Source: Bacteroidia bacterium (GTDB lineage: Bacteria; Bacteroidota; Ignavibacteria; SZUA-365). Taken from it: a stretch of DNA of 64,000 bases. The DNA is taken from assembly GCA_027493955.1 (NCBI GenBank), contig JAOSJT010000001.1, forward strand, positions 4,138,552 to 4,202,551, read 5' to 3'. Positions 11,080 through 44,356 of the stretch are shown one piece after another. The position numbers and the translations under genes are program-made. Under the pieces are notes generated by a model. That model was not told the DNA's origin and searched no databases. It saw nothing but the letters and a program-made list of their open reading frames with translations. Within the stretch, counting starts at the first letter, position 1; the number at the start of each line of letters is the position of its first letter.

Positions 11080-11328
11080 TATTGACGTGATGAGCCACGG
11101 GCGCTGTCTCCGTGTGCCCACGCCGCTGAAAATACCTGAGGGGGTCCGATACGTCGGGCCCCCTCTGTCATTGTGCACATATCGGTTGCCGCACTGTCCC
11201 GGCCATACTCTCCTTCGAACAGGACGCACTGATCGCACCGCGTCGGAGCGGCGGGTACCGCGAAGCCGACAGGGTGTTTACTGCTCCCCGCGTCGTCGTC
11301 GTCGTGCCAGCCTGCAGGGTGATATGTC

Positions 11329-11503
11329 CGCAATCCGCAATCACGCAGGCGGCCAGACGTGTCTCAACCGTGTTTCCGGATTATCGAATCCCTCCGCCTC
11401 AGACGAGCCGATTCCCGATTCCCGATTTCCGATTATCGATTCCCGATTCCCGATTATCGATTCCCGATTCCCAATTCCCGATTCCCGATTATCGATTCCC
11501 GAT
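11329..11503. repeat. partial copy of the dispersed repeat element (CGCAATC motif plus a 13-unit CGATTCC/CGATTAT heptanucleotide array)
   Basis: ccgcaatccgcaatcacgcaggcgg is followed by a period-7 array gattccc/gatttcc/gattatc (11410-11503). The same motifs occur at 26145-26506 and 28564-28725. Sits between convergent genes. The supplied ORFs 11087..11642 are repeat artefacts (IPDSRFPIIDSRFP...). Confidence 0.8.
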
Positions 11504-23312: not shown

Positions 23313-24427
23313 GCAACACAACATCCGTCCGGCAGCTTGAAATTATTCCGACACGTTCCGTCGAAATCGAGGAGAGCGAAGCGCTCGCGTTGCTGAGGTT
23401 GTTGATCTCCACACCCTCGCACAGCCGCGAGGAGCACGACAGCGCGGTAGTTCTTGAAAACTATTTTGCTTCCAGCGGATTCACACCGCAGAGGATCGGG
23501 AACAATGTCTGGGTCGAGCATCCCTCCGCAGACGCGTCGGCACCCACCGTGATGCTGCTCTCGCATCACGACACGGTACGGCCCACACAGAGCTGGACGC
23601 TGGAGCCCTACACGGCGATCGAACGCGACGGAAAGCTGTACGGACTCGGCAGCAACGACGCGGGCGCTGCGATGTGCGCCATGGCTGCCGCCTTCGTTGC
23701 GCTGAAAAATGAATCCTTGCCCTTCCGTCTGCTCTGCGTTGCCGCCGCCGAAGAAGAAATCGCCGGCGCCGGTGGCATAGTCGCCGCGCTGCCATTGCTT
23801 GGAGGCGTGGATATGGCCATCGTAGGCGAGCCCACGGGACTCGAAGCCGCGATCGCCGAAAAGGGACTGCTGGTGCTGGACTGCACGGCGCGCGGGGTGC
23901 CCGGGCATGCGGCTCGGAGCACCGGCGTCAACGCCATCGACATCGCAGCGCGCGACATCGCCTGGTTTCATTCCTTCCGCTTCCCTAAGGAATCCGCAAT
24001 GCTCGGTCCCGTAAAAATGACCGTGACGCAGATACAGTCGGGCACGCAGCACAATGTGGTGCCGGATCGCTGCGACTTCGTGGTCGACATACGCGTCACC
24101 GACGCATACACGCATGAGGAAGTGCTCGACCTCGTTCGCGCGAACATCGCGTCGGATGCGCAGCCGCGCTCGATGAATCTGCGACCCTCGGCCATCGACG
24201 AGGCCCATGTGCTCAGACGCGCGACCGCATCGCTGGGCATTCCCTGTGTCGCCTCTCCCACGATGTCCGATCAGGCGCGGCTGCTTATGCCGTCCATAAA
24301 AATCGGTCCGGGGCGCTCCGAGCGTTCGCACACCGCCGACGAATTCGTGTACATCGACGAGGTGCGCCATGGCGTGCGCACCTATCTGGATCTGCTGCAT
24401 GCATTGACAAAGGAAATGCGGACATGA
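23309..24427 (+). CDS. argE: M20-family acetylornithine deacetylase-like hydrolase
   Basis: M20 peptidase metal-binding blocks (LLSHHDTV, GSNDAGAAM, EEE.AGAGG). Position inside the arg operon. ATGA overlap with argB. Confidence 0.75.
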   Translation: MSNTTSVRQLEIIPTRSVEIEESEALALLRLLISTPSHSREEHDSAVVLENYFASSGFTPQRIGNNVWVEHPSADASAPTVMLLSHHDTVRPTQSWTLEPYTAIERDGKLYGLGSNDAGAAMCAMAAAFVALKNESLPFRLLCVAAAEEEIAGAGGIVAALPLLGGVDMAIVGEPTGLEAAIAEKGLLVLDCTARGVPGHAARSTGVNAIDIAARDIAWFHSFRFPKESAMLGPVKMTVTQIQSGTQHNVVPDRCDFVVDIRVTDAYTHEEVLDLVRANIASDAQPRSMNLRPSAIDEAHVLRRATASLGIPCVASPTMSDQARLLMPSIKIGPGRSERSHTADEFVYIDEVRHGVRTYLDLLHALTKEMRT

Positions 24428-25773
24428 AACTCTGGGAAAAAGGACTGCCGCTGGAAAAGGAGATCGAGGATTTCACCGTCGGCAACGACCGCGTGCTCGA
24501 TCTCGAACTTGCGCCCTACGATGTGCTCGGTTCGCTGGCCCACGCGCGCATGCTCGCATCGTGCGGACTGCTCTCGGAGGATGAGCACGCACAGCTTCGG
24601 CAGGGGTTGCTCGCGATCATGGCGGAAATCGAGGCGGGCAGCTTCATCATCGAGGACGATGTGGAGGATGTGCATTCGCAGGTCGAGTTGTCGCTGACGC
24701 GCAGCTTCGGCGAAGCGGGGGAGCGTTTGCACACCGCGCGCTCGCGTAACGACCAGGTGCTGCTGGATATGAAGCTGTATCTGCGCGACCGCATCCGCGC
24801 TGTGGTGGAAGCGTCGGGAGCGCTTGCGGAGCGTCTGCTGGATCTGAGCAAGCTGCACCGCGAGGTGTTCCTCCCCGGCTACACGCATATGCAGATCGCC
24901 ATGCCGTCCAGCTTCGGGCTGTGGTTCGGAGCCTGGGCAGAGAGCCTTACCGACGATCTCGCAGCCTTGCGCGCCGCGTATCGGCTCGCGGACCGCAATC
25001 CCCTCGGCTCGGCTGCGGGCTACGGTTCGTCCTTCCCCATCGACCGCGGGATGACCACCGAACTGCTCGGCTTCGAAGGACTACATGTGAACTCCGTACA
25101 TGCGCAGCTCTCGCGCGGCAAGACCGAGCGCGCAGCCGCGCACGCCATCGGCATGACCGCCGCCACACTGGCCCGCTTCGCCATGGACGTGTGTCAGTTC
25201 ACCTCCGGAAATTTCGCCTTCCTCTCGCTCGATGCCGCGTTCACCACCGGTTCGAGCATCATGCCGCACAAGAAAAATCCCGATGTGTTCGAATTGATCA
25301 GGGCGAAGTGCAACCGCGTACAGGCGCTGGCAAACGATATTACGCTCGTGACTGCCAATCTACCCTCGGGCTATCACCGCGACCTTCAGATCCTCAAGGA
25401 CATGCTTTTTCCCGCATTCGGCGACATGCTCGCGTGTTTGCGCATCGCGGCGCATGCATTGGAGGGCTTGCGCGTCCGCAGGGACATCATCGACGACGCC
25501 CGCTACCGCGACGTATTCAGCGTGGATGCCGTGCATGGAAAGGTGATGGAGGGCATGCCTTTTCGCGCCGCGTACAAGGCCGTCGCCGACGACATCGCCT
25601 CCGGGAGCTACGATGCAGCGCTGCGACTTCAGCACACGCATATCGGCAGCATCGGCAATCCCGGCAGCGATCTCATCCGCGACCGACTGCGGCGGGAGAT
25701 CGCGGAATTTCCGTTCGGGGTATGGGATGACGCACGGAGCAAATTGTTGGCTTCTTCGCCAGGAAGTGACTGA
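24424..25773 (+). CDS. argH: argininosuccinate lyase
   Basis: Fumarate-lyase signature GSSIMPHKKNPD, ~449 aa. ATGA overlap with argE. Confidence 0.9.
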   Translation: MKLWEKGLPLEKEIEDFTVGNDRVLDLELAPYDVLGSLAHARMLASCGLLSEDEHAQLRQGLLAIMAEIEAGSFIIEDDVEDVHSQVELSLTRSFGEAGERLHTARSRNDQVLLDMKLYLRDRIRAVVEASGALAERLLDLSKLHREVFLPGYTHMQIAMPSSFGLWFGAWAESLTDDLAALRAAYRLADRNPLGSAAGYGSSFPIDRGMTTELLGFEGLHVNSVHAQLSRGKTERAAAHAIGMTAATLARFAMDVCQFTSGNFAFLSLDAAFTTGSSIMPHKKNPDVFELIRAKCNRVQALANDITLVTANLPSGYHRDLQILKDMLFPAFGDMLACLRIAAHALEGLRVRRDIIDDARYRDVFSVDAVHGKVMEGMPFRAAYKAVADDIASGSYDAALRLQHTHIGSIGNPGSDLIRDRLRREIAEFPFGVWDDARSKLLASSPGSD

Positions 25774-25924
25774 CCCACATCCGCGACCGGACACGGTCCA
25801 CACCGTACCATAGGCATGTTTTCGCAAAGTTCTGAATTCTGACAGCAGAACGCGGAGAGCAGAGAGCAGAGAGAGCTGAGCGCGTGCATCTCGCCGGCGT
25901 TGTGCGTTGTTGGTTCGAGATGCT

Positions 25925-26506
25925 TTCGCAAGGCGCTACGCCCTCTGCGCTACGTGAGCCTTTCACATCTCATTATTCACATCTCGACGGGAAGTTGCGC
26001 CCTCCGGGCTATTCTTCAAAAAGGGGGCGCATATCCCCTACACTGAAGTGTAGGTCGAAGACTCGCCGCGGCGGGGTTAGAGGAGGTTGCGTCAGCCTCA
26101 GGCTGAGCTTGGGACGCAATCAATTCTCTTCAATACGCAGCAACGCGGGCACGGCCCGCCGTAGGCCTACCGAGATTTCCGATTATCGATCCACAATCCG
26201 CAATTCGCAATCCGCAATCACGCAGGCGGCCCGCTGTGCCCCTACAGGCCCGGATGTAATGATCCGAAATCCGCAATCCCCAATCCGCAATCCACAATCC
26301 GAAATCCGCAATCACGCCGGCGACTCGCCGTGCCCCTACCACGATTTCCGATTATCGAGCCGCAATCCGCAATCCGCAATCCGAAATCCGCAATCACGCA
26401 GGCGCCTCGCCGTGCCCCTACCGGGATTTCATGATTCCGCGATTCCCGATTCCCGATTCCCGATTCCCGATTCCCGATTCCAGATTCCAGATTCCAGATT
26501 CCAGAA
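25925..26506. repeat. dispersed non-coding repeat element, copy A (unique ~250-bp head, GGGCACGG-CCCG-CCGTGCCC hairpin motifs, CGCAATC and CGATTCC/AGATTCC heptamer arrays)
   Basis: The head (gcgctacgccct.tgcgctacg.gagcc ... ttcacatctca ... gcgccct.cgggct ... cttgggacgc ... gcgggcacggcccgcc) aligns with 28366-28590. Three ~75-bp sub-repeats each carry (CGCAATC)n, then (CGATTCC)5(AGATTCC)4. All six reading frames are open, so the supplied ORFs here are artefacts. Confidence 0.8.
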
Positions 26507-26547
26507 AAACAATGTACTTCCTGGAAATTGGACATATCGGGGTTGCA

Positions 26548-28152
26548 TTACCCCAGCCACCGCCACAGCACGGTCAGCGTACTCAGCAGTACAATCGATG
26601 CCGCGATGTTCGCTGCGCGCATGGCGGTGCGCGGCTGATGGCGGTCCGCTGTGTCGGAGAAGGTGAGATTCACGAGACTTCCGGTGGCGGGAGATTCGCT
26701 GGCGAAACTCACACCGATGAGCACCAGCGAGCAGACGACAAACAGAAGTATCGCCACGTGCAGGAAGTTCACCGTTGCGGCCTGTAGCAGCAGCGGGTTC
26801 TCGAAAGGGTTGAGCTTGTGCATGATTTCAAGAATGAAGCGCAGCGCGCCCAGTACCAGACCGGTGAGCAGCGAGGCAAGAGCGCCCTTCGCGTTTACCC
26901 TCCTCCAGAAAATCCCGAACAGAAACACCGCAGCGATAGGCGGTGATATGTAGCCCTGTACGCTCTGGAGGTAGACGTACATGCGCTCGTCGCTCAGCAA
27001 CCCGATGAAAGGAATCCACAGCAGCCCCAGCAGCACCATCGCCGCGGTTACGTACCGGCCCATGCGAACCGTCTGCCGCTCATCCGCGTGCGGGCGCAGC
27101 TTCTGATAGATGTCAATGGTGAAGAGCGTGGACGTGGAGTTGAACATGGCGCTCAGCGAGGACATCAGCGCAGCGAGCAGACCGGCCACGACCAGACCTT
27201 TGATGCCATTCGGCAGCAGCGTTGTCACCATCCATGCATAACTGCGGTCGCCCGTCACTGTGCCGTCGGACAACGCGTAGCCGACGACGCCGGGAAGTAC
27301 GAGAATGAACACCGGGAGGATTTTCAGAAAACCCGCAAACACCGTGCCGGCCTGTGCATGATCGAGGTTACGCGCACTCAGCACCCGTTGCACAATGTAC
27401 TGGTCCGTGCACCAGTACCAGATGCCCAAAATCGGAGCGCCGAACACTATCCCTGTCCACGGAAAATCCGGATCGCTCATCGGCCTGAACATGTGCCAGA
27501 AATCCGGCGGTGTGGCGGCCACCACGGCATCCCAGCCGCCCGCCTTCTCGAGACCCAGCAGGGTGAGCGCGAGCGATCCGACGATCAGAATCACCATCTG
27601 CACGACGTCCGTGTAGATGACGGCGCTCAGGCCACCAAGCACGGTATACAAGCCGGTGACGAGCACGATCACCACCGCCGATGTGTACATGTCCCAGCCC
27701 ACGACCGCATGCAGCAGTATGCCTCCGGCGTACAGCGAGATGGATATCTTTGTCAGCACATAAGCGACGATGGAGATGCTGCTCAAATACCAGCGGGTGG
27801 CGCTGTTGTAGCGGCGCTCGAGAAACTCGGGCATGGTAAACACGCCCGAGCGCAGATAGAATGGCGTGAACACCCATCCGAGCAGCAACACGATGAGACA
27901 GGCCAGCCATTCGAAATGTCCCACGGCCAGTCCCGACTTCGAACCCGTGCCCGCAAGTCCGAGCAGGTGTTCACTGGAGATGTTCGTAGCAAACAGCGAA
28001 GCACCTATCGCTATCCAACCCACCGAGCGTCCCGCGAGAAAATATCCCTCCCGCGTCTTTCCCCTCCGTGTAAAGTACACACCAATGCCGATGACCAGCA
28101 GAATGTACGCAACGACAATGATCAGATCGAGCCTGGAGAATGCTTCGGACAT
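26548..28152 (-). CDS. sodium:solute symporter family (SSF/SGLT-like) transporter
   Basis: 534 aa, ~13-14 TM helices, typical SSF blocks (GRSVGWIAIGASLFATNISSEHLLGLAG..., ...GGLSAVIYTDVVQ...). Confidence 0.85.
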   Translation of the reverse strand: MSEAFSRLDLIIVVAYILLVIGIGVYFTRRGKTREGYFLAGRSVGWIAIGASLFATNISSEHLLGLAGTGSKSGLAVGHFEWLACLIVLLLGWVFTPFYLRSGVFTMPEFLERRYNSATRWYLSSISIVAYVLTKISISLYAGGILLHAVVGWDMYTSAVVIVLVTGLYTVLGGLSAVIYTDVVQMVILIVGSLALTLLGLEKAGGWDAVVAATPPDFWHMFRPMSDPDFPWTGIVFGAPILGIWYWCTDQYIVQRVLSARNLDHAQAGTVFAGFLKILPVFILVLPGVVGYALSDGTVTGDRSYAWMVTTLLPNGIKGLVVAGLLAALMSSLSAMFNSTSTLFTIDIYQKLRPHADERQTVRMGRYVTAAMVLLGLLWIPFIGLLSDERMYVYLQSVQGYISPPIAAVFLFGIFWRRVNAKGALASLLTGLVLGALRFILEIMHKLNPFENPLLLQAATVNFLHVAILLFVVCSLVLIGVSFASESPATGSLVNLTFSDTADRHQPRTAMRAANIAASIVLLSTLTVLWRWLG

Positions 28153-28365
28153 GCCTTCTCTCCGTCATGATGGAATGCGCAAATCTGCGAAATCCGTCGG
28201 CAACATACAATGTGGTCGGCGGAGAGGGGGTGAAGAGGGGGTGAAGGGTAAAGGGTGCAGGGGTGCCTGTCTGCAGTCGAAAAGTAGATAAAAGACCAGA
28301 TAACCCCGAATATAAAAATGCGCTCTGCCTGTGAGACTTCACGCCTGGAGAAATCCGCCTGGGCT

Positions 28366-28725
28366 AAGCGCTACGCCCTTTTGCGCTACGCGAGCCGTTT
28401 ACTCAACCGAAGGCTGACACTTTTCACATCTCACCTGGAGTGGCGCCCTTCGGGCTTGGGAGCTCTTTGCTGGCTGCGTGCCCCCCACACTCACGTGTAG
28501 GGTTTTGGGAAGTGTCGCCCTTCGGGCTTGGGACGCGTATGATTTTCATTTGGATGTGACGACGCGGGCACGGCCCGCCGTGCCCCTACCGCGATTTCCG
28601 AGTATCGATCCGCAATCCTCAATCCGCAATCATGCAGGCGGCTCGCCGTGCCCCTACCGCGTTTCCGTGATTCCTGTTTCTCGATTCCCGATTCCCGATC
28701 CGAAATCGTCAATCGTCAATCGTAA
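28366..28725. repeat. dispersed non-coding repeat element, copy B (same orientation as copy A)
   Basis: Collinear with 25925-26240 (gcgctacgcccttttgcgctacgcgagcc, ttcacatctca, gcgcccttcgggcttggg, gcgggcacggcccgccgtgcccctacc). Ends in CGCAATC / CGATTCC / CGTCAAT heptamer runs abutting the stop of the next gene. Confidence 0.8.
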
Positions 28726-28726
28726 A

Positions 28727-31189
28727 TCAGCTCACCCTCACCACCACCATCGTCATGTCGTCGTGCTGCTCGGCTTTGCCGGCGAAGCGGCGGGTTTCGC
28801 GGTAGAGGCCGTCGAGGATTTGCGCGGCGCTGTCGCCGGCGTGACGCTGCAGGGTGACGGCCAGTCGCTCCTCGCCGAACTCCTCGCGCTTCGTGGTCAT
28901 CGCCTCGGGATAACCGTCTGTGTACAGCACGAATATGTCTCCCGGATGTATGGGCAGCGTCACTTCCTCGATCGTCTGCTCGAATTTCTCACCGCCCTCG
29001 AAACCCAGCGCCATACCGCGCGACTGTATCACATCCACATGGTGATCGGAATCCATGCGCATCACCGGCGTGTGTCCCGCGCGCGCGATGGTGACGCTGT
29101 GCGTCTTCAGATCGAACACGGCGTAAATCATGCTGATGAAATTGCCGCGCTCCACGTTCTCGTAAAACAGGCGGTTCATTTCCACGAGCACGCGCGAGGG
29201 CGAGGTGGAAAAACGTCCCAGCGCTTTGAGAAATCCTTTGGTCAGCGTCATGTAAAACGCGGCCTGCGTGCCCTTGCCGGATACGTCTCCTATGGCGATG
29301 CCGATTTTATCCGGTCCCAGGTCGATGAAGTCGTAGTAATCCCCGCCCACCTCCATCGCCGGCGCACAGCGCGAAGCGATATCCAGGCCGGGGAAATGCG
29401 GATCGTGCTTCGGCAAAAAGCCCATCTGCACATCCCGCGCAATCTCCAGCTCGCGCGACAAACGCTGCCGCTCCGAAATATGCCGCTGGAAGCGGGGCGC
29501 GATCTTTTCGAAATCGCTCACCGTATCGCGTGTGACGAGGGCCAGCACGGCGAACAGCAGCATCGCCAGACCCACAGCCAGCAACAGCATTCCCTCGGAT
29601 TGATACGCGGTGTTCCAGGGCAGAAGCAGCAAACCACCTTTATGGACAATCAGACCCGCACTCAGTCCGCTGATGCCGGCCATGACATCCGCGGATACAA
29701 ACAGCAGTATCACAACGAGCGCAGGAAGCAGAGTAAGCGCTATTCCGCTCCAGAGAGGTTGCAGAGCGAGCGGATTCGGCAGAGCAAGCACCAATGCGCC
29801 CATCGGGAGCAGCAACCAAGGGGTGCGTAGTCGTTGACGGACCAGGGACACAACGAACATCACCGCGAAAGCGAAAGCAAACACACCGCTGTTCAATGAA
29901 TCGCCGAGCACAAAAAGCGCCGGCATACCGGAACTGAACATGTCGAAGGCATTATCCGATTTGTGCACGATACCAATGCCGCCGTCAGGAGCGAACAACC
30001 CGAGCGCGGTCACGCCAATACCCGTCATGAGTAATCCGCCCGACAGACCGCGTAACAGTGCATGCCCGATACGCGAATGAAGGACGTGCCCGCGCGTAAG
30101 CAGATCCACAGTGATGAATTTCTCTTTCCACGTTTCCCGCCCCACCGACTCTCCCACAGCCCAGACGACGAACATTGCGCCGCCGACGAGCAACGGAGCG
30201 AGCAGGAGTGGGAACAGGAGTTCCGGCTCCCAAACCGCCTCCGCGCGGAGCTGGAGGTAAAACCACGTGCCGAACAGCAGCGCCGTGACACCGCTGATAA
30301 GAAGGGCCGTTCGAAAACCGATCTCATACGCCCGCAGTCTCCGGATACCGGTCACAATCAGCAGTATCGAGAGGCCAACGTAAAAGAGCACCTGCAGTAT
30401 CTCTCCCATGTATCCGCCCTCACTCCCGGCCGCTGATGACGTTGCTCTGGGTTCAAGGGAGAAGCGGGTCACGGTACCACCGGCAAGATCCACGCGTACG
30501 TCGATGCTGTCACCTGTCCGGGCATCAAATGCGGCCCAGGAAGCCGAATAGTTTCTTCGCGCAGGTGATTCGTTCCGCGTCCAGCGAACACTGTCGCCGG
30601 GTGCGAAACCGCGCTGTGTGCGTGCAGCGGCATTCAGCCCGAGCGGACCGCGGTACATCGAGTCTGCGTGCGTCCGTATCAGACGCTCCACTGTACCGAG
30701 CGCCTCGTGCGGCGAGAGAGACGGAAGCGAAACCGAATCGGGTACGGGAACGAGCAAGTAGAGCAGTGATCCGTCAGTGTGGAATCGCATCTGAATGTCG
30801 CCCTTGAGAATGCGGTCCACGATGCGTTCTTCGGAATTCGAAATGCGCAGGGAGGTAGCTCCGTCGGGGTCGGCGCGGAATATGCGGACGCGCCAGTGAT
30901 ATGCCGAAGAGGAGAGTGCAGCCGGGACCGCGTCGGTGGGCGGCCCCTTGCGCGCGCCCATCTCCTCAGAAGAGCTCTGACGTAGCCTCGGAAGAATGGT
31001 GAAGCGCACGGAATCGAGATGCAGATCCGCAAGCACAGCTTGCGAGCGGAAGCGGATACTGTCGCTGTTCACAGTGAGACGCATCATGGACCAGGGGTGG
31101 GCGGTGGGATAGAAGTACAGCAGAAGAATCAATCCCGCGACTCCGCCGGCGAGCCAGAGCCAGGTGATAGCGCGTTCGCTCTGTAACAT
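28727..31189 (-). CDS. membrane sensor serine phosphatase: N-terminal TM plus ~250-aa extracytoplasmic domain, multi-pass (7TM-receptor-like) region, C-terminal PP2C/SpoIIE domain
   Basis: The C-terminal ~230 aa (..AMEVGGDYYDFIDL...GDVSGKGTQAAFYM...ARAGHTP...YTDGYPEA...HDDMTMVVVRV) is a SpoIIE/RsbU-type PP2C. The upstream half has ~7 hydrophobic helices. Start assigned to M 31189 (MLQSERAITWLWLAGGVAGLILLLYF). The track ORF extends to 31453 through the divergent promoter region. Confidence 0.8.
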   Translation of the reverse strand: MLQSERAITWLWLAGGVAGLILLLYFYPTAHPWSMMRLTVNSDSIRFRSQAVLADLHLDSVRFTILPRLRQSSSEEMGARKGPPTDAVPAALSSSAYHWRVRIFRADPDGATSLRISNSEERIVDRILKGDIQMRFHTDGSLLYLLVPVPDSVSLPSLSPHEALGTVERLIRTHADSMYRGPLGLNAAARTQRGFAPGDSVRWTRNESPARRNYSASWAAFDARTGDSIDVRVDLAGGTVTRFSLEPRATSSAAGSEGGYMGEILQVLFYVGLSILLIVTGIRRLRAYEIGFRTALLISGVTALLFGTWFYLQLRAEAVWEPELLFPLLLAPLLVGGAMFVVWAVGESVGRETWKEKFITVDLLTRGHVLHSRIGHALLRGLSGGLLMTGIGVTALGLFAPDGGIGIVHKSDNAFDMFSSGMPALFVLGDSLNSGVFAFAFAVMFVVSLVRQRLRTPWLLLPMGALVLALPNPLALQPLWSGIALTLLPALVVILLFVSADVMAGISGLSAGLIVHKGGLLLLPWNTAYQSEGMLLLAVGLAMLLFAVLALVTRDTVSDFEKIAPRFQRHISERQRLSRELEIARDVQMGFLPKHDPHFPGLDIASRCAPAMEVGGDYYDFIDLGPDKIGIAIGDVSGKGTQAAFYMTLTKGFLKALGRFSTSPSRVLVEMNRLFYENVERGNFISMIYAVFDLKTHSVTIARAGHTPVMRMDSDHHVDVIQSRGMALGFEGGEKFEQTIEEVTLPIHPGDIFVLYTDGYPEAMTTKREEFGEERLAVTLQRHAGDSAAQILDGLYRETRRFAGKAEQHDDMTMVVVRVS

Positions 31190-31235
31190 GCAGTCTCCGA
31201 AATGCTGGAAAAACAGGATCAGTCCACGGCTGCGA

Positions 31236-31250
31236 GATGCAACAGTTGCA
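31236..31250. promoter_or_regulatory. palindrome ATGCAAC-A-GTTGCAT in the 262-bp divergent control region between the two PP2C sensor genes
   Basis: atgcaacagttgcat at 31236-31250. Half-site GATGCAAC recurs at 31396-31403. Confidence 0.2.
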
Positions 31251-31451
31251 TGGGGCGTCCGTATACGGATTGTTCGGCATAAGGTTGCTTTCACGAACAG
31301 AATCACGACAGGGCGGCCTGAGAACGAATTCCGCGAATACTGTGTGATTCCTTCGTGTAAAATCGCGATATTATGCGACTGAAAACAACCCGAGCGATGC
31401 AACGCGTCCCGTGAGTTCTCTCTTCTGTACTTCTCACTTTCAGGCGCCGCC

Positions 31452-34244
31452 ATGTCCCGACTGATGGATTCTCTTTCACCGCGTGCGATACGAATTCTCT
31501 ACTCCGTTTTTGCCATTCTCGTCCTGGCTATCGCCGTGTACAATCTCCTGCACATCCTTGTGTGGCGCGTGCCGAGCAATGATCAATGTGAGTGGAGAAT
31601 GGTGTTTTCCGATACAGCGGCCGTGCATCTGGATTGGGATGTGCGCAAGCCGCATGCGTCAATGCTCGGTTTCGAACGGGGAGACCTGGTTCTCGCTGTC
31701 AATGGCATCAGTGCCGACAGTGCGAGCGATGCGATAAAGAACATACTGCGTGCGGCCGGCGGAGATACGGTTCGGGTACTGATTGACAGGGACCGGCGGC
31801 AGCGGACCATCCCGCTCGTGCGCGATCCCGGGTGGAAAGAACTTCCGTTCAAGTTGTACGACAGGCCTGTCGAAACCCTCGTCATAACGAACATCGTTCC
31901 CGGAGGGGTGACGGAGCAGGCCGGCGCACAGGAAGGCGATCTGCTGCTGCGTATCGACAGCGTCAGTACCCGCTATCAACTCGGCGCTCAGAATCTTCTC
32001 AACAGACATCATGCGGGTAGCATCGCCCGCTTTACCATTGAGAGAGATGGAGAGCTGCGCACACTGAACGTTCGTGTGCTCAAGGCCTTTAATTACATGT
32101 ACTTCGGCCTGTTTCTCCTTGGCCTGGGTTTCTTCGTCGTCGGGTACGTGGTCGTGATGGCCAAACCGGAGGGTCGTATCCAACGACGTTTCGGGCGCTA
32201 TGGTATCCTCGCCTTATTCCTGTTCGGAATGCAGAGCGTCGCAGTGGGTCCGGTACTGGATTCGTATTTCAAAGTGTACAGCATGCTATCGCTGGCGCTC
32301 CTTTCGCGTATTATCGCACCTCCGGCCTTCGTGATGTTTTTCTTCCACTTCCCGTATCACAAACGGCGTGTGGATCGCTGGTGGATCATTACCGGTCTTT
32401 ACGGACTCTGCGCTCTCGCCGCTTTCGTGCTCTTTAATTGGTCCTTCCATATTCTCGAATGGAGGGCGGCGCTCTGGATGATCCGTCTCGCCGATCTTTT
32501 GCCCATGTCGCTGCTCTTCGTCGGGCTCCTGGTCTTTGCGCACAGCTACTTTCATGTCGGGGACCGACTGCAACGCAAGCAACTGCGTCCCATTTTGTAC
32601 TCCACCCTCATCGGTGTCGCGGTCTTCATCTACATGACAGTGGTGAGCACGACCTATCCTCTTGCGATTTACCTTCAGCCCTATCTTCTGCTCCCGGCAC
32701 TATTGTTCATCGGCATTCCTCCTGCCTTTGCCTATGCGATTTTCAAGAATCGCCTCATGGACGTGACCGTTATCGTCAAGCGCAGCATCATATATGCGCT
32801 GATTACCGCCACCATCGCGGCGATTTACCTCATGTTCGTGTTCGGTCTTGGGAGTGTGCTCGGGGTAATGCTGGGTGAAACGGACAACACTCTGCTCATA
32901 CTCGTCGCCTTCATCGTCATCGCGCTGGTCTTCGATCCGCTCAAACGAAGATTGCAGGAGTGGGTGGACCGTATATTCTATCAGGAACGCTACAATTACC
33001 AGAAAGCGTTGCTCGAGTTCAGCCGTGAACTCCCGCGGCAAATCAAGATGGAGGAAATTCTTTCTTCCATGGTGTCGCGTATTTCATCCACCATGCATGT
33101 CGAGCGCGTGGCCGTGGGGCTGTGCGATGATACGCATGGCTGTCATGTGCTGAGTAAAAATATTCCGGACCGCTGCTGTGAATTCGGACATGTGGATGGC
33201 GGGCTGTTGCAGGCGCTGAAGGACATGCGTATCCCTCTCTCCGTCGCGCTGGTCAACGAGGATCCGCGCATCGTGGATCCTGAGGACAGACAGCGCATTC
33301 GTGAGGCCGGTATCGTGTTGGTCGTGCCGATGTTTTTGCAGGATCGTCTCATCGGCGCCATCATGGTTGGTTCCAAGATGAGCGGCAAGGTCTACTCGCA
33401 GGAAGACATTGATCTGCTTTCCACCGTCGCGGGACAGGCCGCGATAGCCATCGAAAACGCCCGTCTGCACTCATCGGAACTGGAGAAACAGAAGATCACC
33501 GAACAATTGCAGATCGCACAGCGCATACAGAAAAGTCTGCTCCCGCGCAGCAGTCCCGAACTATCCCAACTCGACATCGCCGGCGTGTCGATTCCCGCGA
33601 TGACGGTCGGTGGTGATTATTATGACTACATACACCTGCCGGACGACCGCCTGCTCGTGGTCGTGGGCGATGTATCCGGGAAAGGCATATCCGCCGCGCT
33701 GTACATGTCCAAGGTGCAGGGTATTCTCCGTTTTGCCGCGTCGGTGTGCGCCACACCGCGCGACATGCTCATCAGCACCAACCGCCATTTGTATGAAGGT
33801 ATGGAGCGGAACACGTTCTTTACCGCGGTACTCGCCTTATTCGACTTCCGGGAGGGGACCGTGACCATGTGCCGCGCCGGACACACGCAACCGCTGGTCG
33901 GTCTGAACGGCGATTTGCACTATATGCACATGGAAGGCATGGGGCTCGGTCTCGAGCCGGGTGCCGTGTTCGACACCTCCCTGCAGGAGGTCACCTGGCC
34001 AATGAAACCCGGTGGGCTGGTACTGCTGTATTCGGACGGACTGACCGAGGCCATGGACGGGGGCATGAATCTATTCGGCGAAGACCGTCTTTTCAGCCTT
34101 TTCCGCAGTGTGCGTCATGAAGACGCCGAAGACATACAGCGGCGCATCTTAGGGGAGGTGGCCTTGCATCGCGGTGCCGCCGAGCAAAACGATGACATCA
34201 CCATGGTGGTCATTCGGATTAAGCAGAAAAAGGTATCTGAATAA
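31452..34244 (+). CDS. membrane sensor serine phosphatase: TM anchor, two PDZ domains, multi-pass TM region, GAF domain, PP2C/SpoIIE domain
   Basis: PDZ-like blocks (GDLVLAVNGIS..., GDLLLRIDSVS...), ~8 hydrophobic helices (res ~230-480), a GAF-like region (..VAVGLCDD...IVLVVPMFLQDRLIGAIMVGSK..), and a C-terminal PP2C paralogous to the previous gene (VGGDYYDYIHL...GDVSGKGISAALYM...RAGHTQ...YSDGLTEA...NDDITMVVIRI). Confidence 0.8.
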   Translation: MSRLMDSLSPRAIRILYSVFAILVLAIAVYNLLHILVWRVPSNDQCEWRMVFSDTAAVHLDWDVRKPHASMLGFERGDLVLAVNGISADSASDAIKNILRAAGGDTVRVLIDRDRRQRTIPLVRDPGWKELPFKLYDRPVETLVITNIVPGGVTEQAGAQEGDLLLRIDSVSTRYQLGAQNLLNRHHAGSIARFTIERDGELRTLNVRVLKAFNYMYFGLFLLGLGFFVVGYVVVMAKPEGRIQRRFGRYGILALFLFGMQSVAVGPVLDSYFKVYSMLSLALLSRIIAPPAFVMFFFHFPYHKRRVDRWWIITGLYGLCALAAFVLFNWSFHILEWRAALWMIRLADLLPMSLLFVGLLVFAHSYFHVGDRLQRKQLRPILYSTLIGVAVFIYMTVVSTTYPLAIYLQPYLLLPALLFIGIPPAFAYAIFKNRLMDVTVIVKRSIIYALITATIAAIYLMFVFGLGSVLGVMLGETDNTLLILVAFIVIALVFDPLKRRLQEWVDRIFYQERYNYQKALLEFSRELPRQIKMEEILSSMVSRISSTMHVERVAVGLCDDTHGCHVLSKNIPDRCCEFGHVDGGLLQALKDMRIPLSVALVNEDPRIVDPEDRQRIREAGIVLVVPMFLQDRLIGAIMVGSKMSGKVYSQEDIDLLSTVAGQAAIAIENARLHSSELEKQKITEQLQIAQRIQKSLLPRSSPELSQLDIAGVSIPAMTVGGDYYDYIHLPDDRLLVVVGDVSGKGISAALYMSKVQGILRFAASVCATPRDMLISTNRHLYEGMERNTFFTAVLALFDFREGTVTMCRAGHTQPLVGLNGDLHYMHMEGMGLGLEPGAVFDTSLQEVTWPMKPGGLVLLYSDGLTEAMDGGMNLFGEDRLFSLFRSVRHEDAEDIQRRILGEVALHRGAAEQNDDITMVVIRIKQKKVSE

Positions 34245-34326: not shown

Positions 34327-36123
34327 ATGACACGTCTCATTTTTTCCACTGCGATCGTACTCCCCCTGCTGCTCACAACGTGCACTACAGACCATCGTAG
34401 TGCCGCCGACCGTCACTTCGAGGAGGTTGCCGCGCACTTCATCGAAGCCTGGCTCGTTTCCCATCCCGAACAGGCGACAGCGCTGGGGGACCGCCGTTTC
34501 GACGACCGACTGAATGATTACTCCCACAATGGGATACAGAACGACATCGCGCTGTATCGTGCATATCTCGACACTTTGCGGGAAATACGCGTCGAGGATC
34601 TTTCGGCAGCACACATGATTGATTACGACATTATGCTGCAAAGTGTCACAGGAAGTCTTTTTACACTCGAAGAATTGCGCGAGTGGGAATGGAACCCCTT
34701 GTCATACAATCCCGGGGAGGCTATCTACGGCCTGATCGCGCGCAATGGAACGACGTTCAGCGCAAGAATGAAGGCCTTGGCCGCGAGACTGCGCGGTGTA
34801 CACGCTCTGCTCGACGCGGCCCGCGCGAATTTGACGAATCCTCCTGCAATTCACACCGAGACCGCGATCATTCAAAACGAAGGCGTCCTTGCACTGCTGA
34901 CCGGCATCGTGCAGGCTTGTATCGACAGCGTGGACAGTCCGCTGCGCGCCGAGCTCTCCACAGCTCGCGATTCCGCATTATTGGCACTCAGGGACTATGG
35001 TGCCTGGTTGTCGGAGGACTTGCTCCCGCGCTCACGACGTGACTTCCGACTTGGCGCGGCGCTGTACGCCAGGAAGTTTCAGTATAAACTCGATACGGAC
35101 ATGAAACCGGAAGATCTGTTGCAGGAGGCCTGGCTCGATCTCGCCCGTACCACAGAGGACATGTATCAGGTCGCACTTCCATTGTATGCGGAGCTGTTCG
35201 ACAGTCGTGACGCCGCGAAACTCGAGCGCGACGCACTCATACGCGCGGTACTCGCCAAGCTCAGCGATCAGCATTCCAACGACGATCGCATCGTTGAGCA
35301 GGCGCGGCGTGACCTCGTGGCGGCCACGGATTTCGTAAAGGCACAGGGCTTGGTGACCGTGCCCGCCGAGCCATTGGAGATCATCGTGATGCCGGAATTT
35401 CAGCGTGGTGTCGCGGTGGCTTACTGCGACAGTCCCGGAGCACTGGAGAAAAACGGAAAAACGTTTTTCGCCATCGCTCCCACTCCGGCATATTGGACCG
35501 ATGCACGCAAGGAGTCGTTCTACCGCGAATATAATGACCACATGCTGCGGAATCTTGTTGTGCACGAAGCGATGCCGGGGCACTATTTGCAGATAGCCGC
35601 ATCGCATAAGGCAGAGGCCCCGACACTCCTGCGTGCGATCACACCCAGCGGTGTGTTTGCCGAAGGGTGGGCGACCTACAGCGAGCAGCTCATGGCTGAC
35701 GCCGGTTTCGGCGGAGCGGCGATGAAGATGCAGCAACTCAAGATGCGTCTCCGTCTGTTGATCAACACCATTCTCGACCAGAGTGTCCACACGATGGGCA
35801 TGAGCGAACGCGATGGCATGGCGCTGATGATGGAGCAGGGATTTCAGGAGGAGAGCGAGGCGGCGGGTAAATGGCGCAGGGCCTGTCTCACCTCGGTGCA
35901 GCTCAGTTCCTACTATTACGGCAACCGGAGAATCAACGACATACGCGCACGCTATCAACAGCAGGCGGGTGAGCGCTTCGACCTGCGGGCGTTTCACGAT
36001 ACCCTGCTTTCCTTCGGCACCATTTCGCCCAAATATCTGCCCGTGTTGCTCAAGCTGCCCTCCGATGCCGCATCGGCACCGTCGGCAGCGGAACGGGAAA
36101 ATTTGGAACGCCGACCAGGTTGA
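34327..36123 (+). CDS. DUF885-family lipoprotein (zinc-metallopeptidase-like HEAMPGH motif)
   Basis: Signal/lipobox MTRLIFSTAIVLPLLLTTC; length ~600 aa; conserved HEAMPGHYLQ block typical of DUF885. Confidence 0.7.
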   Translation: MTRLIFSTAIVLPLLLTTCTTDHRSAADRHFEEVAAHFIEAWLVSHPEQATALGDRRFDDRLNDYSHNGIQNDIALYRAYLDTLREIRVEDLSAAHMIDYDIMLQSVTGSLFTLEELREWEWNPLSYNPGEAIYGLIARNGTTFSARMKALAARLRGVHALLDAARANLTNPPAIHTETAIIQNEGVLALLTGIVQACIDSVDSPLRAELSTARDSALLALRDYGAWLSEDLLPRSRRDFRLGAALYARKFQYKLDTDMKPEDLLQEAWLDLARTTEDMYQVALPLYAELFDSRDAAKLERDALIRAVLAKLSDQHSNDDRIVEQARRDLVAATDFVKAQGLVTVPAEPLEIIVMPEFQRGVAVAYCDSPGALEKNGKTFFAIAPTPAYWTDARKESFYREYNDHMLRNLVVHEAMPGHYLQIAASHKAEAPTLLRAITPSGVFAEGWATYSEQLMADAGFGGAAMKMQQLKMRLRLLINTILDQSVHTMGMSERDGMALMMEQGFQEESEAAGKWRRACLTSVQLSSYYYGNRRINDIRARYQQQAGERFDLRAFHDTLLSFGTISPKYLPVLLKLPSDAASAPSAAERENLERRPG

Positions 36124-37148
36124 TGGAACCTTCGCACGATACCGACGCGCTAGCAGCCCTCGGAACGGAGTTCACCGGCACCGCTCCGAACGCGGTGATC
36201 GCGCTCAAGGGTGACGCTTCCGACCGCAGGATTTACCGGCTTGTGTATTCTTCGCAAAGTCTGATCGGCGTCGTCGGACCCAATGTGGCGGAGAACCGCG
36301 CCTTCATCGGCTTCGCGCGCTCCTTCCGCGCCGCAGGATTGCATGTGCCGGAAGTGTATCGCGTATCGGAACACGAGCAGGCGTATCTGCAGGAGGATCT
36401 CGGAGACGCGCTTTTCAGCGACTGGCAACGGACACATACGACAGCCGAGGGTGTGGATGGCGAGGCCATGGCCCTGTACGGCATCGTATTGCAAGAGCTG
36501 CTGCGTTTTCAGCACGACGCCGCCTCCGCAGTGGATTATTCACTGTGTTATCAGACCCGCGAGTTCTCGACCGAAGCGATGCTTTTCGACATCCGTTATT
36601 TCCGCGACAACTTCCTTGCACGTCTCGCAGAAGTTCCGTGGGACGAGCGGCGTTTCATGGCCGATTGCAACCTGCTGGTCGAAATGCTGTGCCGGGAGCC
36701 GCGCAACGGTTTCCTCTACCGAGATTTTCAATCCCGCAATGTCATGCTGCGCGATGGCACACCCTGGTTCATAGATTTCCAATCCGGCCGAAAGGGCGCT
36801 CCGCAGTATGACCTCGCGTCCATGCTGTACGACTCAAAGGGCGGGCTTACAACCGCGCAGCGCGAGACGCTCATCGATCAGTACATTGCCGGCCTGAGGT
36901 CGCGGTATGATGTCGATGAAGTCGTTTTCCGGCGCCGTTTCGCCGGTTTCGCCGTGTTGCGGCTCATGCAGGCACTCGGCGCTTTCGCCAACCTCGGTCT
37001 GAACAAAGGCAAACCAACGTACCTCGAGTTCATTCCGTCACGTTTGAGCACAATGCGCGAGGTCGTTTCCTCAGCGGTAATTCTCGACGAAGTCCCGTAT
37101 CTGAGGGGTTTGTTGCTGCGGTGCGGTGATGGTGGTGATTCAGAGTGA
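36123..37148 (+). CDS. aminoglycoside-phosphotransferase-fold sugar kinase, AmgK-like (anomeric MurNAc/GlcNAc kinase); LicA-type alternative not excluded
   Basis: APH/ChoK-family catalytic loop YRDFQSRNVML (Brenner motif HxDxxxxN with Y) and IDFQSG metal-binding loop; 341 aa; a nucleotidyltransferase gene follows in the same direction. Starts TGATG-overlapped with the DUF885 stop. Confidence 0.6.
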   Translation: MEPSHDTDALAALGTEFTGTAPNAVIALKGDASDRRIYRLVYSSQSLIGVVGPNVAENRAFIGFARSFRAAGLHVPEVYRVSEHEQAYLQEDLGDALFSDWQRTHTTAEGVDGEAMALYGIVLQELLRFQHDAASAVDYSLCYQTREFSTEAMLFDIRYFRDNFLARLAEVPWDERRFMADCNLLVEMLCREPRNGFLYRDFQSRNVMLRDGTPWFIDFQSGRKGAPQYDLASMLYDSKGGLTTAQRETLIDQYIAGLRSRYDVDEVVFRRRFAGFAVLRLMQALGAFANLGLNKGKPTYLEFIPSRLSTMREVVSSAVILDEVPYLRGLLLRCGDGGDSE

Positions 37149-37149
37149 T

Positions 37150-37705
37150 AAGCGAAGTAAAGAGTGAAGAGTAAAGAGTAAAGAGTGAAGAGCGTCAACC
37201 AAGGAGCTAGCGCTGTAACTGCAGAATATACGAAAACGAACCCCTTTACTCTTTACTCTTTACCCTTCACGAATCCTATGAGTTTATAGATTCACATCCC
37301 ATCATGAGCAGACGTTCTGAAGTTACAGAAATATATGCGTAACAGAACCCCTTTACCCTTTACTCTTTACCCTTCACGAATCCAAGGAGTTTATCGATTC
37401 GCATTCCATCCTGAGCAGACGTTTTGAAGTTACAGAAATATATGCGTAACAGAACCCCTTTACCCTTTACTCTTTACCCTTCACGAATCCTATGAGTTTA
37501 TAGATTCACATCCCATCATGGGCAGACGTTCTGAAGTTACAGAAATATATGCGTAACAGAACCCCTTTACCCTTTACTCTTTACCCTTCACGAATCCTAT
37601 GAGTTTATAGATTCACATCCCATCATGAGCAGACGTTCTGAAGTTACAGAAATATATGCGTAACAGAACCCCTCTACCCTTTACTCTTTACCCTTTACGA
37701 ATTCC
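37150..37705 (+). repeat. 107-bp tandem repeat array (~4.5 copies) preceded by an inverted GTAAAGA/GTGAAGA heptamer block; lower GC than surroundings
   Basis: cagacgttctgaagttacag recurs at 37309, 37416, 37523 and 37630 (period 107). Each unit contains ..cctttaccctttactctttacccttcac.. and atgagcagacgttctgaagttacagaaatatatgcgtaa. The final copy merges into the start of ORF 37706. Confidence 0.85.
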
Positions 37706-38104
37706 ATGAGTCTGTTGATTCACATCGCATCATTCGGATACAGAAAATCCGGTATCCCCGCAGACGAGTCCGGCCATGGCGGCGGGTATGTGTTCGACTG
37801 CCGCGGTTTGCCGAATCCCGGACGCGAAGAGCGCTTTCAGGCGCTGACGGGATTGGACGCGGAGGTGGAACTGTTTCTTGCGGCTGAGGAGGCGGTAGAG
37901 GATTTTCTTGCGCACTGCCTTGCGCTCTGTCTGAGTACGGCGGAGGCGCATCGGCGCAGGGATTTTACGCAGCTGTCCGTAAGCTTCGGCTGCACGGGAG
38001 GTCAGCATCGCTCGGTGTACTGCGCCGAACGGACGGCACAGGCCCTGCGCGATGCGGGGTATGATGTCGTCGTGACGCATAACGAACGGGAGCATTGGCC
38101 ATGA
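37706..38104 (+). CDS. RapZ (YhbJ/YvcJ) C-terminal-domain-like protein lacking the P-loop NTPase half
   Basis: 132 aa; ...VSFGCTGGQHRSVYCAERTAQALRDAGYDV matches, as recalled, the GCTGG(Q/K)HRSV block of the RapZ family C-terminal domain; no Walker A. Stop overlaps the start of the next gene (ATGA). Confidence 0.45.
   Translation: MSLLIHIASFGYRKSGIPADESGHGGGYVFDCRGLPNPGREERFQALTGLDAEVELFLAAEEAVEDFLAHCLALCLSTAEAHRRRDFTQLSVSFGCTGGQHRSVYCAERTAQALRDAGYDVVVTHNEREHWP

Positions 38105-43390: not shown

Positions 43391-43392
<2 letters not shown>
42301..43392 (+). CDS. rsgA: ribosome small-subunit-dependent GTPase A
   Basis: Circularly permuted GTPase motifs (VVNKIDL ... GHSGVGKTSILN ... DTPGIREFGL) and C-terminal zinc finger CRFPHCTHTHEPGCAV. 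Carries a ~40-aa Lys/Arg-rich N-terminal extension. Confidence 0.85.
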
Positions 43393-43893
<501 letters not shown>

Positions 43894-43895
<2 letters not shown>

Positions 43896-44265: not shown

Positions 44266-44356
44266 GTCATACTCCCAAAGTGAGTGGAATGAAAAAAAAC
44301 ATCAATACCTGTGCGGTATTAACGAAATGCGTAAATCTTTCCTGGATACAAATAGA

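Follow-up and report, generated by a model that had tools for sequence, protein, structure and literature searches.

The sodium:solute symporter (SSF) gene described here lies between two direct copies of a non-coding repeat, and the question that this locus raises is whether the gene is mobile cargo or a resident around which repeats have accumulated. The original prediction, made from a 64-kb stretch of DNA (the window), favoured a composite-transposon-like or recombination-prone layout. The two copies, referred to as A and B, are more probably homologous copies of a lineage-specific, non-coding intergenic mosaic than parts of a mobile gene cassette. This mosaic, which is part heptanucleotide array and part REP/BIME-like, would have been formed via slippage, tandem duplication and one local copying event.

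Two homologous non-coding copies flank the symporter gene

Copies A (25928-26506) and B (28363-28725) are collinear and on the same strand, and flank the SSF gene (26548..28152, minus strand), whose product matches the Pfam SSF family at 2e-92. All the motifs originally quoted for the element occur in both copies, while the ends first given to it were slightly shifted, as homology begins at 25928 in A and at 28363 in B. A BLASTN comparison of A with the window recovered B with 63.6% identity over 404 columns (E 9e-32), and the two tails share 78% over 153 nt. The concern that the similarity might be limited to the simple-sequence tails was not borne out. The leaders alone (25928-26142 and 28363-28561) give a local score of 34, which corresponds to z=16.6 against 500 dinucleotide shuffles (mean 9.2, sd 1.5, maximum 18), and the best leader score elsewhere in the window is 15; the similarity thus extends past the tails.

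The repeat is real, direct in orientation and non-coding, as had been proposed. Neither A nor B presents a coding signal or a coding ORF. The statement that no copy contains an ORF needs to be amended, since a 260-aa ORF (25884-26666, +) crosses A. As a protein, this ORF was rejected: a 1-nt indel shifts the frame between the two copies, so that it is not kept in B, and its database matches are translated heptamer arrays only, apart from the window's own copy C. The description of the element as non-coding therefore stands.

Organisation of the copies

Each copy is composed of a hairpin-rich leader of ~200 nt, one type-I unit, a number of type-II units (three in A, one in B) and an array, with a (CGATTCC)n array closing the copy. 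The units measure ~80-90 nt and carry a conserved box, CGCCGTGCCCCTACC, which on the minus strand reads GGTAGGGGCACGG and so joins a GTAG to a GC arm. This box is enclosed by two kinds of heptamer array, (CGCAATC)n and (GATTYCC)n, one on each side. Searches with nhmmer starting from the units found exactly seven of them in the window, all on the + strand and distributed over three loci. The leader is found only twice in these 64 kb.

In copy A, the leader (25928..26142, +) contains the modules M1, M2, M3, M4 and M6. M1 (25928-25960) has the form GCGCTACGCCCT-C-TGCGCTACG-T-GAGCC with a 14-nt period, and M2 (25962-25985) consists of two copies of TTCACATCTC. They are followed by the hairpins M3 (25997-26010; GCCC-TCCG-GGC) and M4 (26034-26054; CCTACACT/AGTGTAGG), and by M6 (26088-26117), in which TCAGCC-TCA-GGCTGA is joined to GCTTGGGACGC. 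The core of the type-I unit (26143..26171, +; ACGCGGGCACGGCCCGCCGTAGGCCTACC) has a mutated 3' arm and has lost its stem. The three type-II units (26172..26432, +), with cores at 26222-26248, 26312-26340 and 26396-26424, share the consensus ACGCAGGCG.CTCGCCGTGCCCCTACC and are each preceded by a (CGCAATC)n array. Successive units in A start ~79-90 nt apart, and GATTTCCGATTATCGA follows units I and IIb. The terminal array (26433..26506, +), of composition (GATTCCC)5(GATTCCA)4, ends 41 nt from the SSF stop codon. The possibility that the flanking arrays form a long hairpin was discarded, as the A tail folds no better than shuffled sequences (z=+1.1).

The leader of copy B (28363..28561, +) contains M1 (28363-28396), M2 (28423-28432), an M3 hairpin with TTGGGA (28439-28461, +; GCCC-TTCG-GGC), M4 (28479-28500) and a second M3-like hairpin with GCTTGGGACGC (28511-28536, +). 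Its type-I unit (28562..28590, +) is the sole intact palindrome, with GGTAG followed by GGGCACGG-CGGG-CCGTGCCC on the minus strand and a predicted energy of -12 kcal/mol as DNA. The hairpin originally attributed to both copies is exact in B (28564-28590), whereas its counterpart in A (26145-26171) carries three changes in the 3' arm and the stem is gone. The remainder of B (28591..28725, +) comprises GCGATTTCCGAGTATCGA, a short (CGCAATC) array, a type-II core at 28631-28659 and then (CGATTCC)- and (CGTCAAT)-type arrays; the stop codon of a SpoIIE-phosphatase gene is 1 nt away from its end.

The predicted tail-only third copy, C, was located by BLASTN and nhmmer at 11327..11503 (+). In it, a degenerate type-II unit (11340-11368) lies between a short (CGCAATC) array and a (CCGATTC/CGATTAT) array of 13.7 repeats, and the copy finishes 35 nt short of the PAP2 stop (gene at 11539-12384, -). 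All three copies have the same orientation and lie 1-41 nt past the stop codon of a minus-strand gene. Copy A is placed between the convergent argH and SSF genes, B between the tandem SpoIIE and SSF genes, and C between the convergent OmpA and PAP2 genes.

The symporter gene in relatives that lack the repeats

In the nearest relative (GCA_029980345.1; loci L033, L034 and L035), the SSF protein is 95-96% identical and the gene is 89% identical at the nucleotide level. There, SSF is convergent with argH and its two spacers measure 65 and 150 bp, compared with 774 and 574 bp in the window. In relatives at 83-84% identity, the order is SpoIIE, 66 bp (L036/L037), SSF and then 15-17 bp. None of the relatives examined carries the repeat mosaic in its orthologous spacers, and the leader was not found in the related-genome loci fetched (about 4-22 kb each). 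As SSF stands beside argH or SpoIIE in relatives without repeats, the gene is a resident whose spacers grew around it. Moreover, the dS to the nearest relative is 0.44 for SSF and 0.47 for the adjoining argH, which points to a common history of the two genes.

Conservation with L033 covers the 60 nt before the SSF start codon, which make up the leader and promoter region of the gene (28153..28212, minus strand). Copy B thus lies upstream of the promoter region, and this segment bounds the expanded spacer on the SSF side. Directly upstream of it is an array of a distinct heptamer family, GGTGAAG/GGTAAAG (28215..28255, +; CCCTTCA/CCCTTTA on the minus strand), while L033 has (CGTCAAT)n at the matching position instead.

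These comparisons bear on the idea that the direct repeats and the SSF gene form a composite transposon, or a recombination cassette that moves the transporter gene. The layout, with direct repeats on either side of one gene, is what such an element would present. Nevertheless, this explanation is extremely improbable: SSF keeps its position relative to argH and SpoIIE in repeat-free relatives, its dS matches that of argH, A and B contain no coding ORFs, and no transposase or RAYT domain was found among the about 45 proteins of the window. The two ends of the element are not linked by an inverted repeat. Perfect identity between A and B extends over no more than 20 nt, which makes the proposed proneness to recombination a weak claim as well. 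With regard to target-site duplications, none is visible; the spacers of the relative, which were compared in order to set insertion ends, proved unalignable, so no target duplication can be read from them. A tandem duplication of B together with SSF, followed by loss of the second SSF, was also rejected, as the DNA to the left of A retains no trace of the SSF leader or promoter. The repeat blocks expanded the spacers of a pre-existing gene, and the transposon reading fails.

Repeat-filled spacers elsewhere in the window

The bracketing of SSF is less special than it first seemed, as most long spacers of the window are filled with repeats. Of the 15 spacers longer than 115 bp, nine contain tandem arrays, as do all seven that exceed 450 bp, and the heptamer families represented include CGCAATC/CGATTCC/CGTCAAT, CTTTACC/CTTCACC and GAGCGGA/AGAGAGC. 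Arrays detected by TRF, all of them in spacers, include 26262-26313 (x7.4), 26360-26400 (x5.7), 26433-26502 (x9.9, 96% matches) and 11408-11503 (x13.7). Direct composite repeats with 96.6% identity also lie on either side of a second gene (43894-44265), and the APH and RapZ_C genes, which abut in relatives, are split by a repeat block in the window. Repeat-filled spacers are thus a habit of this genome.

STRR sequences were reportedly described in cyanobacteria by Mazel et al. in 1990, and long simple-sequence repeats are said to have been treated by Mrazek et al. in 2007. As expected of LSSR/STRR-type sequences, the arrays of the window consist of head-to-tail intergenic 7-nt units and belong to several families spread over many spacers. 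Arrays of TAACTGA and other heptamers have been described in Beggiatoaceae, Cyanobacteria and Bacteroidetes (MacGregor 2015; PMC4679880). In Bacteroidetes, intergenic regions with several heptamer direct repeats have been reported, for which the spacers of close relatives are shorter and repeat-free and in which assemblies break (PMC4679880). The present arrays resemble these in their tandem intergenic units, in the presence of several families per genome, in their absence from the shorter orthologous spacers of close relatives and in their location at synteny break-points and assembly breaks. Furthermore, (AATCCGC/AATCCCC)n and (CGATTCC)n also occur in unrelated contigs, including one from a Moorena cyanobacterium. 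They differ in that a conserved GC box of 27-29 nt regularly breaks the arrays into super-units of ~85 nt, in the non-array leader of ~200 nt that two loci share, and in the heptamers themselves, which are neither TAACTGA nor the classical STRR units.

Relation to REP and MITE families

RAYT/TnpA-REP is believed to mobilise GTAG-tagged REPs and their BIME/REPIN clusters (Di Nocera 2013, Nunvar 2010; PMC3733652, PMC2817692). Copies A and B might belong to a dispersed mobile family of non-autonomous, REP/REPIN- or MITE-like elements whose GTAG hairpin is recognised in trans, for example by a Y1 transposase of the RAYT type, in which case two diverged members would have been inserted independently beside SSF. 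Several features are in line with this explanation. The box abuts GTAG to a GC-rich arm on the minus strand, and in B, unit I does form a true GTAG-tagged stem-loop. Like REPs (PMC3733652), the copies occupy extragenic sites at the 3' ends of convergent or tandem genes, and their units form clusters that are reiterated with flanking DNA. In addition, the third locus carries a tail without a leader, and both SSF sites are empty in relatives. A scan of a genome collection (GTDB representative set) with the box motif revealed a 28-nt palindrome built from the same 14-nt arm in many phyla, with several copies within 8 kb in one genome. No shared gene, such as a RAYT gene, was found beside these cross-phylum palindromes.

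Assembly data point in a similar direction, as in many samples the assembly graph branches within the elements. Independent short-read assemblies of the source organism all stop at 26082 and 28591, inside the elements, and none of the 31-mers at these ends is repeated within the window, so the ends could reflect further copies elsewhere in the genome. GTAG REPs typically number >100 per genome, and the window has seven units at three loci in 64 kb; the indirect hints on copy number, from these assemblies and from the protein-cluster comparison given below, conflict.

Against a mobile family, GGTAGGGGCACGG is kept in five of the seven units, but a good palindrome is found only in unit I of B (-12 kcal/mol, z=-1.4), and none of the seven folds significantly better than shuffled sequences. 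All seven units are on the + strand and head-to-tail rather than in the inverted pairs of GTAG REPs, for which this arrangement is reported as rare or absent. No RAYT or transposase is encoded in the window, and GTAG REPs have not been reported from Bacteroidetes; Bacteroidota, the NCBI label of this organism, is outside the phyla reported for them. The leader is absent from the relative loci, and a search of JGI metagenome contigs with its most conserved motif returned three chance coding matches only. A query for more copies with the spurious minus-strand ORF returned nothing: among 5.8 billion protein clusters, just one has 5-residue words in common with the translated minus strand of B, a result that is weak evidence against a high copy number. 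With regard to MITEs, the copies are likewise short, non-coding and intergenic, and present in one genome while absent from the same site of its relative. Unlike MITEs, they display neither terminal inverted repeats nor a target-site duplication, there are two full copies in the window, and their right end is not sharp because the mosaic fades into heptamer arrays. Taken together, a dispersed mobile family seems rather unlikely. If it were true and a cognate Y1 transposase existed, GTAG-REP systems would be extended to a phylum without any description of them.

Leader hairpins and a possible RNA function

The leaders contain near-identical blocks of 10-28 nt between unalignable linkers, with UNCG-type loops on the + strand, a pattern that hints at constraint rather than neutral decay and counts against the explanation favoured here. 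The leaders could be paralogous structured or cis-acting RNA elements with hairpins under selection. They might serve the minus-strand genes as 3'-UTR stabilisers or in a terminator-like manner, or be small RNAs of the + strand. The hairpin blocks are conserved while the linkers vary, and the + strand loops are C(UUCG)G and C(UCCG)G. At one hairpin position the stem differs between A (TCAGCC-TCA-GGCTGA) and B (GCCC-TTCG-GGC), both placed before GCTTGGGACGC, and pairing of the M4 stem is kept despite a U-A to U-G change on the minus strand. Predicted folding is also better than that of shuffles for the A leader as RNA (z=-3.1) and for the B tail as single-stranded DNA (z=-3.6).

However, only two sequences are available, with 0-1 compensatory pairs, and the predicted global folds of A and B differ. 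The strand hints clash, since the UNCG loops point to the + strand and the G-U pair to the minus strand. No site resembling a promoter or terminator is common to the two copies, the scan for sigma-70 promoters and intrinsic terminators being uninformative. The Rfam search suggested for the element gave no family: with Rfam 15, the window has no match at the gathering score, and the sole match at E<=5 is a chance miRNA inside the SSF gene. ARAGORN found no tRNA or tmRNA. Additionally, the orthologous spacers of the relatives all lack the element, which would be unexpected for a regulatory RNA tied to these genes. A structured-RNA nature of the leaders is thus unlikely.

Formation and significance of the mosaic

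The intergenic mosaic favoured here probably arose through three processes. Replication slippage would lengthen or shorten the heptamer arrays, and within each copy a unit of ~85 nt would have been duplicated in tandem. In addition, SSF would have come to be flanked on each side by an ancestral block of ~300 nt, through either a single local copying event over the 1.6-kb gene or two insertions of related family members. This flanking probably dates from around the split of the lineage from its nearest sequenced relative, as the distance between the A and B leaders (JC 0.40) is close to the dS between the two genomes (0.44-0.47). The mosaic most likely has no specific role. At most, by analogy with what has been proposed for REP sequences, its hairpins could be transcribed in 3'-UTRs and slow exonucleases or insulate neighbouring genes.

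With regard to its significance, the result for SSF prevents a resident transporter gene from being mis-annotated as mobile cargo, and repeat spacers account for the fragmentation of short-read assemblies in this lineage. The locus adds a well-resolved Bacteroidota case to the poorly understood class of heptanucleotide arrays. The empty sites in relatives provide polarity and a rough timing for a roughly ten-fold growth of spacers around intact genes and promoters.

Slippage alone fails to account for the different heptamers in arrays at the same position, which counts against the favoured explanation. Both the heptamers and the GTAGGGGCACGGC arm are found again in unrelated phyla. As this recurrence and the different heptamers at one position hint, the arrays and boxes might, in place of passive slippage, be the work of an active, sequence-specific process shared among phyla that writes or maintains them, and the leader shared by A and B would then be a functional nucleic-acid module of that system; this is regarded as quite improbable.

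A further hint of such a process is a recurrent design in the window, in which a heptamer array X is followed by a linker and then by longer units that each hold the reverse complement of X. One such pair brackets a gene for a 23S-rRNA-IVS/Avd-like four-helix bundle.

Homology and anatomy of the two copies

The two non-coding repeat blocks on either side of the sodium:solute symporter gene SSF (26548-28152, minus strand; Pfam SSF, 2e-92), copy A (25928-26506) and copy B (28363-28725), are collinear and on the same strand, with 63.6% identity over 404 columns when A is searched against the window by BLASTN (E 9e-32). The layout given for this region in the original prediction agrees with the sequence on re-reading, and both copies close with (CGATTCC)n arrays. 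The tails match more strongly, with 78% identity over 153 nt in the same kind of BLASTN search, but the similarity is not confined to these simple-sequence tails. The hairpin-rich leaders aligned on their own (25928-26142 against 28363-28561) gave a local score of 34, compared with 9.2 ± 1.5 and a maximum of 18 for 500 dinucleotide shuffles (z=16.6), and the next-best leader score elsewhere in the window was 15. With a score this far above both the shuffles and the rest of the window, the leaders are truly homologous. The architecture and the relatedness of A and B are plain from the alignments; the repeats are real and make up a new sequence family. Rfam gave no match at gathering score.

In the alignment of A and B, the leader appears as conserved blocks with unalignable linkers between them. 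Both copies carry M1, GCGCTACGCCCT-N(1-2)-TGCGCTACG-N-GAGCC, and M2, TTCACATCTC, of which A has two copies 14 nt apart. Both also carry M3, a small GCCC-TYCG-GGC hairpin, with a second copy in B at a position where A has another stem, TCAGCC-TCA-GGCTGA, the same GCTTGGGACGC following both. A further block, M4, is a hairpin of 7-8 bp (CCTACAC/GTGTAGG).

The leader is followed by box units, of which an nhmmer profile found exactly seven in the window, all on the plus strand: A holds four, B holds two, and a degenerate one lies at 11336-11389 in the tail-only copy C (11327-11503). Each has a core of 27-29 nt, of type I (ACGCGGGCACGGCCCGCCGTGCCCCTACC) or type II (ACGCAGGCG.CTCGCCGTGCCCCTACC), and in most units (CGCAATC)n precedes the core and GATTTCCGATTATCGA or a variant follows it. 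The order is alike in A and B, running from the leader through type I and then type II to the (CGATTCC)n arrays. On the minus strand, the box reads GGTAG and then GGGCACGG. The complementary arm is retained only in unit I of B (-12 kcal/mol), and none of the seven units folds significantly better than its shuffles; conservation in the box lies in one arm's sequence and not in a hairpin. Position and orientation are constant across the three loci, just past minus-strand stop codons, at 41 nt from SSF for A, 1 nt from SpoIIE for B and 35 nt from PAP2 for C.

The SSF locus in related genomes

The neighbours of SSF are argH (Lyase_1; 24424-25773, plus strand) on the side of A and a SpoIIE-type phosphatase gene (28727-31453, minus strand) on the side of B. 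The SSF protein of the window is identical to MCZ7557880.1, and in the nearest relative, GCA_029980345.1 (loci L033-L035), SSF shows 95-96% amino acid and 89% nucleotide identity, with a dS of 0.44, close to the 0.47 of argH. The convergent arrangement of SSF with argH and the arg operon is kept in this relative, where the SSF/argH spacer measures 65 bp against 774 bp in the window and the spacer upstream of SSF 150 bp against 574 bp. The 60 nt 5' of the SSF start codon are conserved between the two, and neither the sequence further upstream nor any part of the downstream spacer could be aligned; the SSF promoter/leader, downstream of B, is intact and conserved. In more distant relatives (SSF 83-84% identical) no arrays were found in the loci L036-L039: L036 and L037 read SpoIIE, 66 bp, SSF, 15 bp and a GH31 gene, and in L038 and L039 the SSF-GH31 gap is 17 bp.

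The orthologous sites of A and B are empty in the relatives. This synteny shows that SpoIIE is the ancestral upstream neighbour of SSF, with a spacer that has grown about nine-fold, that SSF is a resident gene, and that A and B are expansions or insertions found in the window's lineage alone. The composite-transposon reading of the original prediction falls with it: SSF is resident where the repeats are absent, and the transposon-like interpretation of A-SSF-B is refuted.

The SSF region has been repeatedly rearranged in this lineage. In a third genome (L035, SRR24043417), the SSF protein is identical to that of the relative, and argH is followed by a Redoxin gene in place of the remaining arg genes. 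Immediately 5' of the conserved 60-nt SSF leader, L033 carries (CGTAAAT/CGTCAAT)n (1254-1308) and the window (CCCTTCA/CCCTTTA)n (28215-28255). The upstream neighbour gene also differs in L033, so that the arrays coincide with a synteny break-point.

Mobility, age and copy number

No transposase or RAYT domain was found in the ~45 window proteins, which represent an ordinary chromosomal repertoire (RNase HII, the arg operon, RsgA, Maf, CTP synthase, DnaG). Neither terminal inverted repeats nor target duplications can be seen at A or B, where the relative's spacers are unalignable. The region had also been proposed to be recombination-prone. Perfect identity between A and B extends over 20 nt at most, at or below the length efficiently used by RecA-dependent recombination, so that no particular tendency to deletion follows from the layout.

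The leaders of A and B are separated by a JC distance of 0.40 over aligned columns, with gap columns accounting for another 22%. This comes close to the synonymous divergence of the window from its nearest relative, which suggests that A and B parted roughly when the two lineages did, in keeping with the empty sites for both in the relative. They could stem from a single copying event across SSF or from two insertions from a family that had already diverged.

Among independent short-read assemblies of the window's organism, three stop exactly at 26082 and ten at 28591, and no 31-mer at either position is repeated within the window, which hints at further copies. The leader occurs only twice in the 64-kb window, none of the loci fetched from related genomes contains it, and an M1 motif scan of JGI metagenomes returned chance matches only; together with a near-empty protein-word search, this hints against a large family.

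Coding and RNA tests

The copies had been described as free of any ORF. A 260-aa ORF does cross A, but the non-coding assignment stands, as a 1-nt indel in M1 shifts the frame relative to B. Searched against 5.8 billion protein clusters, its translation matched only translated heptamer arrays, with the periodicities RNPQSAI and PIPDSRF, along with copy C of the window itself. B translated on the minus strand had words in common with a single cluster, and nothing scored. A and B have no coding potential.

The signs of a structured RNA are suggestive, yet thin and contradictory. The UNCG-type loops point to the plus strand, while a U-A to U-G change in M4 points to the minus strand. Folded as RNA and compared with shuffles, the leader of A reaches z=-3.1 and that of B z=-1.4, the predicted folds are unlike, and at most one compensatory pair is present. 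In the window, Rfam at E<=5 gave only a chance match within SSF, and an ARAGORN search for tRNA and tmRNA found nothing.

Relation to known intergenic repeats

A and B belong to a known class, the intergenic mosaic repeats in which heptanucleotide arrays are joined to REP/BIME-like hairpin boxes. In their tails, A, B and C represent the same phenomenon as the heptamer arrays described by MacGregor (2015, PMC4679880), where close relatives have shorter, repeat-free spacers in an unchanged gene neighbourhood, repeat-filled intergenic regions are nearly identical in one species, assemblies stop inside the repeats and a link to gene rearrangement was suggested. Heptanucleotides are the commonest long simple-sequence repeats, for which polymerase slippage is the proposed cause (Mrazek et al. 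2007, cited in PMC4679880).

In its tag, its arm and its location, the box resembles the GTAG-tagged REPs of Di Nocera et al. (PMC3733652). Those elements, with a GTAG tag adjoining a 6-13-bp GC stem, are extragenic, mostly downstream of genes and often clustered along with flanking DNA; they are unreported in Bacteroidetes and rarely arranged head-to-tail. The window box differs in its head-to-tail orientation and in having the palindrome in only one of seven units; it is termed REP-like here and not classed as a REP.

In the mechanism proposed here, heptamer arrays would lengthen by slippage and the ~85-nt unit would multiply by tandem duplication, an ancestral leader-I-II-array block having come to both sides of SSF. 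A and B would then be neutral passengers, at most transcribed as 3'-UTR hairpins.

Arrays elsewhere in the window

Tandem arrays are a habit of this genome, occupying 9 of the 15 window spacers that exceed 115 bp and every one of the seven that exceed 450 bp. They comprise at least three heptamer families, two of which adjoin A (25850-25880) and B (28215-28255) as short arrays. Two direct composite blocks, at 43391-43885 and 44350-45120, bracket a second gene and share 96.6% identity over 445 nt. This gene lies at 43894-44265 on the minus strand and encodes a 123-aa protein of the four-helix-bundle family 23S_rRNA_IVP (Pfam, 3e-25), to which the DGR accessory protein Avd also belongs. Both blocks consist of a heptamer array, a ~90-nt linker and a 47-nt unit array (x6.5 and x12.4). 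Their first heptamers differ, (GAGCGGA)12.6 and (AGAGAGC)7, and each is the reverse complement of a motif within the 47-nt unit.

A 557-bp repeat block (37149-37733) separates APH (36120-37148) from RapZ_C (37706-38104), genes that abut or overlap in the relatives L036 and L038. It contains (AGTAAAG/AGTGAAG)n together with a 107-nt unit repeated 4.6 times; in every unit, CCCTTTA-type heptamers, which are complementary, accompany a duplicate of the initial ~30 nt of RapZ_C. After dnaG comes a 58-nt x3.9 tandem array (60289-60512). From 60.9 to 64 kb, G+C falls to 44-52% and the genes have no Pfam match save a PIN-domain protein (63368-63799), and this stretch may be an island.

The box arm and heptamers in unrelated genomes

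In genome contigs, the 14-nt box arm forms part of a perfect or near-perfect 28-nt palindrome, GTAGGGGCACGGCG|CGCCGTGCCCCTAC, at ~25 of 30 loci (L003-L032); the scan pattern covered only the one arm. The loci span at least eight phyla (Chloroflexota, Nitrospirota, Planctomycetota, Cyanobacteria, Desulfobacterota, Betaproteobacteria, Actinobacteriota and Zixibacteria), and no neighbouring gene common to them was found. The Microseira/Phormidiaceae versions have long loops, and the Dehalococcoidia locus L027 has several more weak profile matches inside 8 kb. Arrays of heptamers shared with the window, (AATCCGC/AATCCCC)n of up to ~30 units and (CGATTCC)n, also occur in unrelated contigs of 47-60% GC (P0121-P0128; L046, L047, L049). 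Such arrays are found as well at the start of a gp25-like gene in the cyanobacterium Moorena (P0122), and L049 carries a short inverted (GATTGCG)3 array ~370 nt upstream of its main array.
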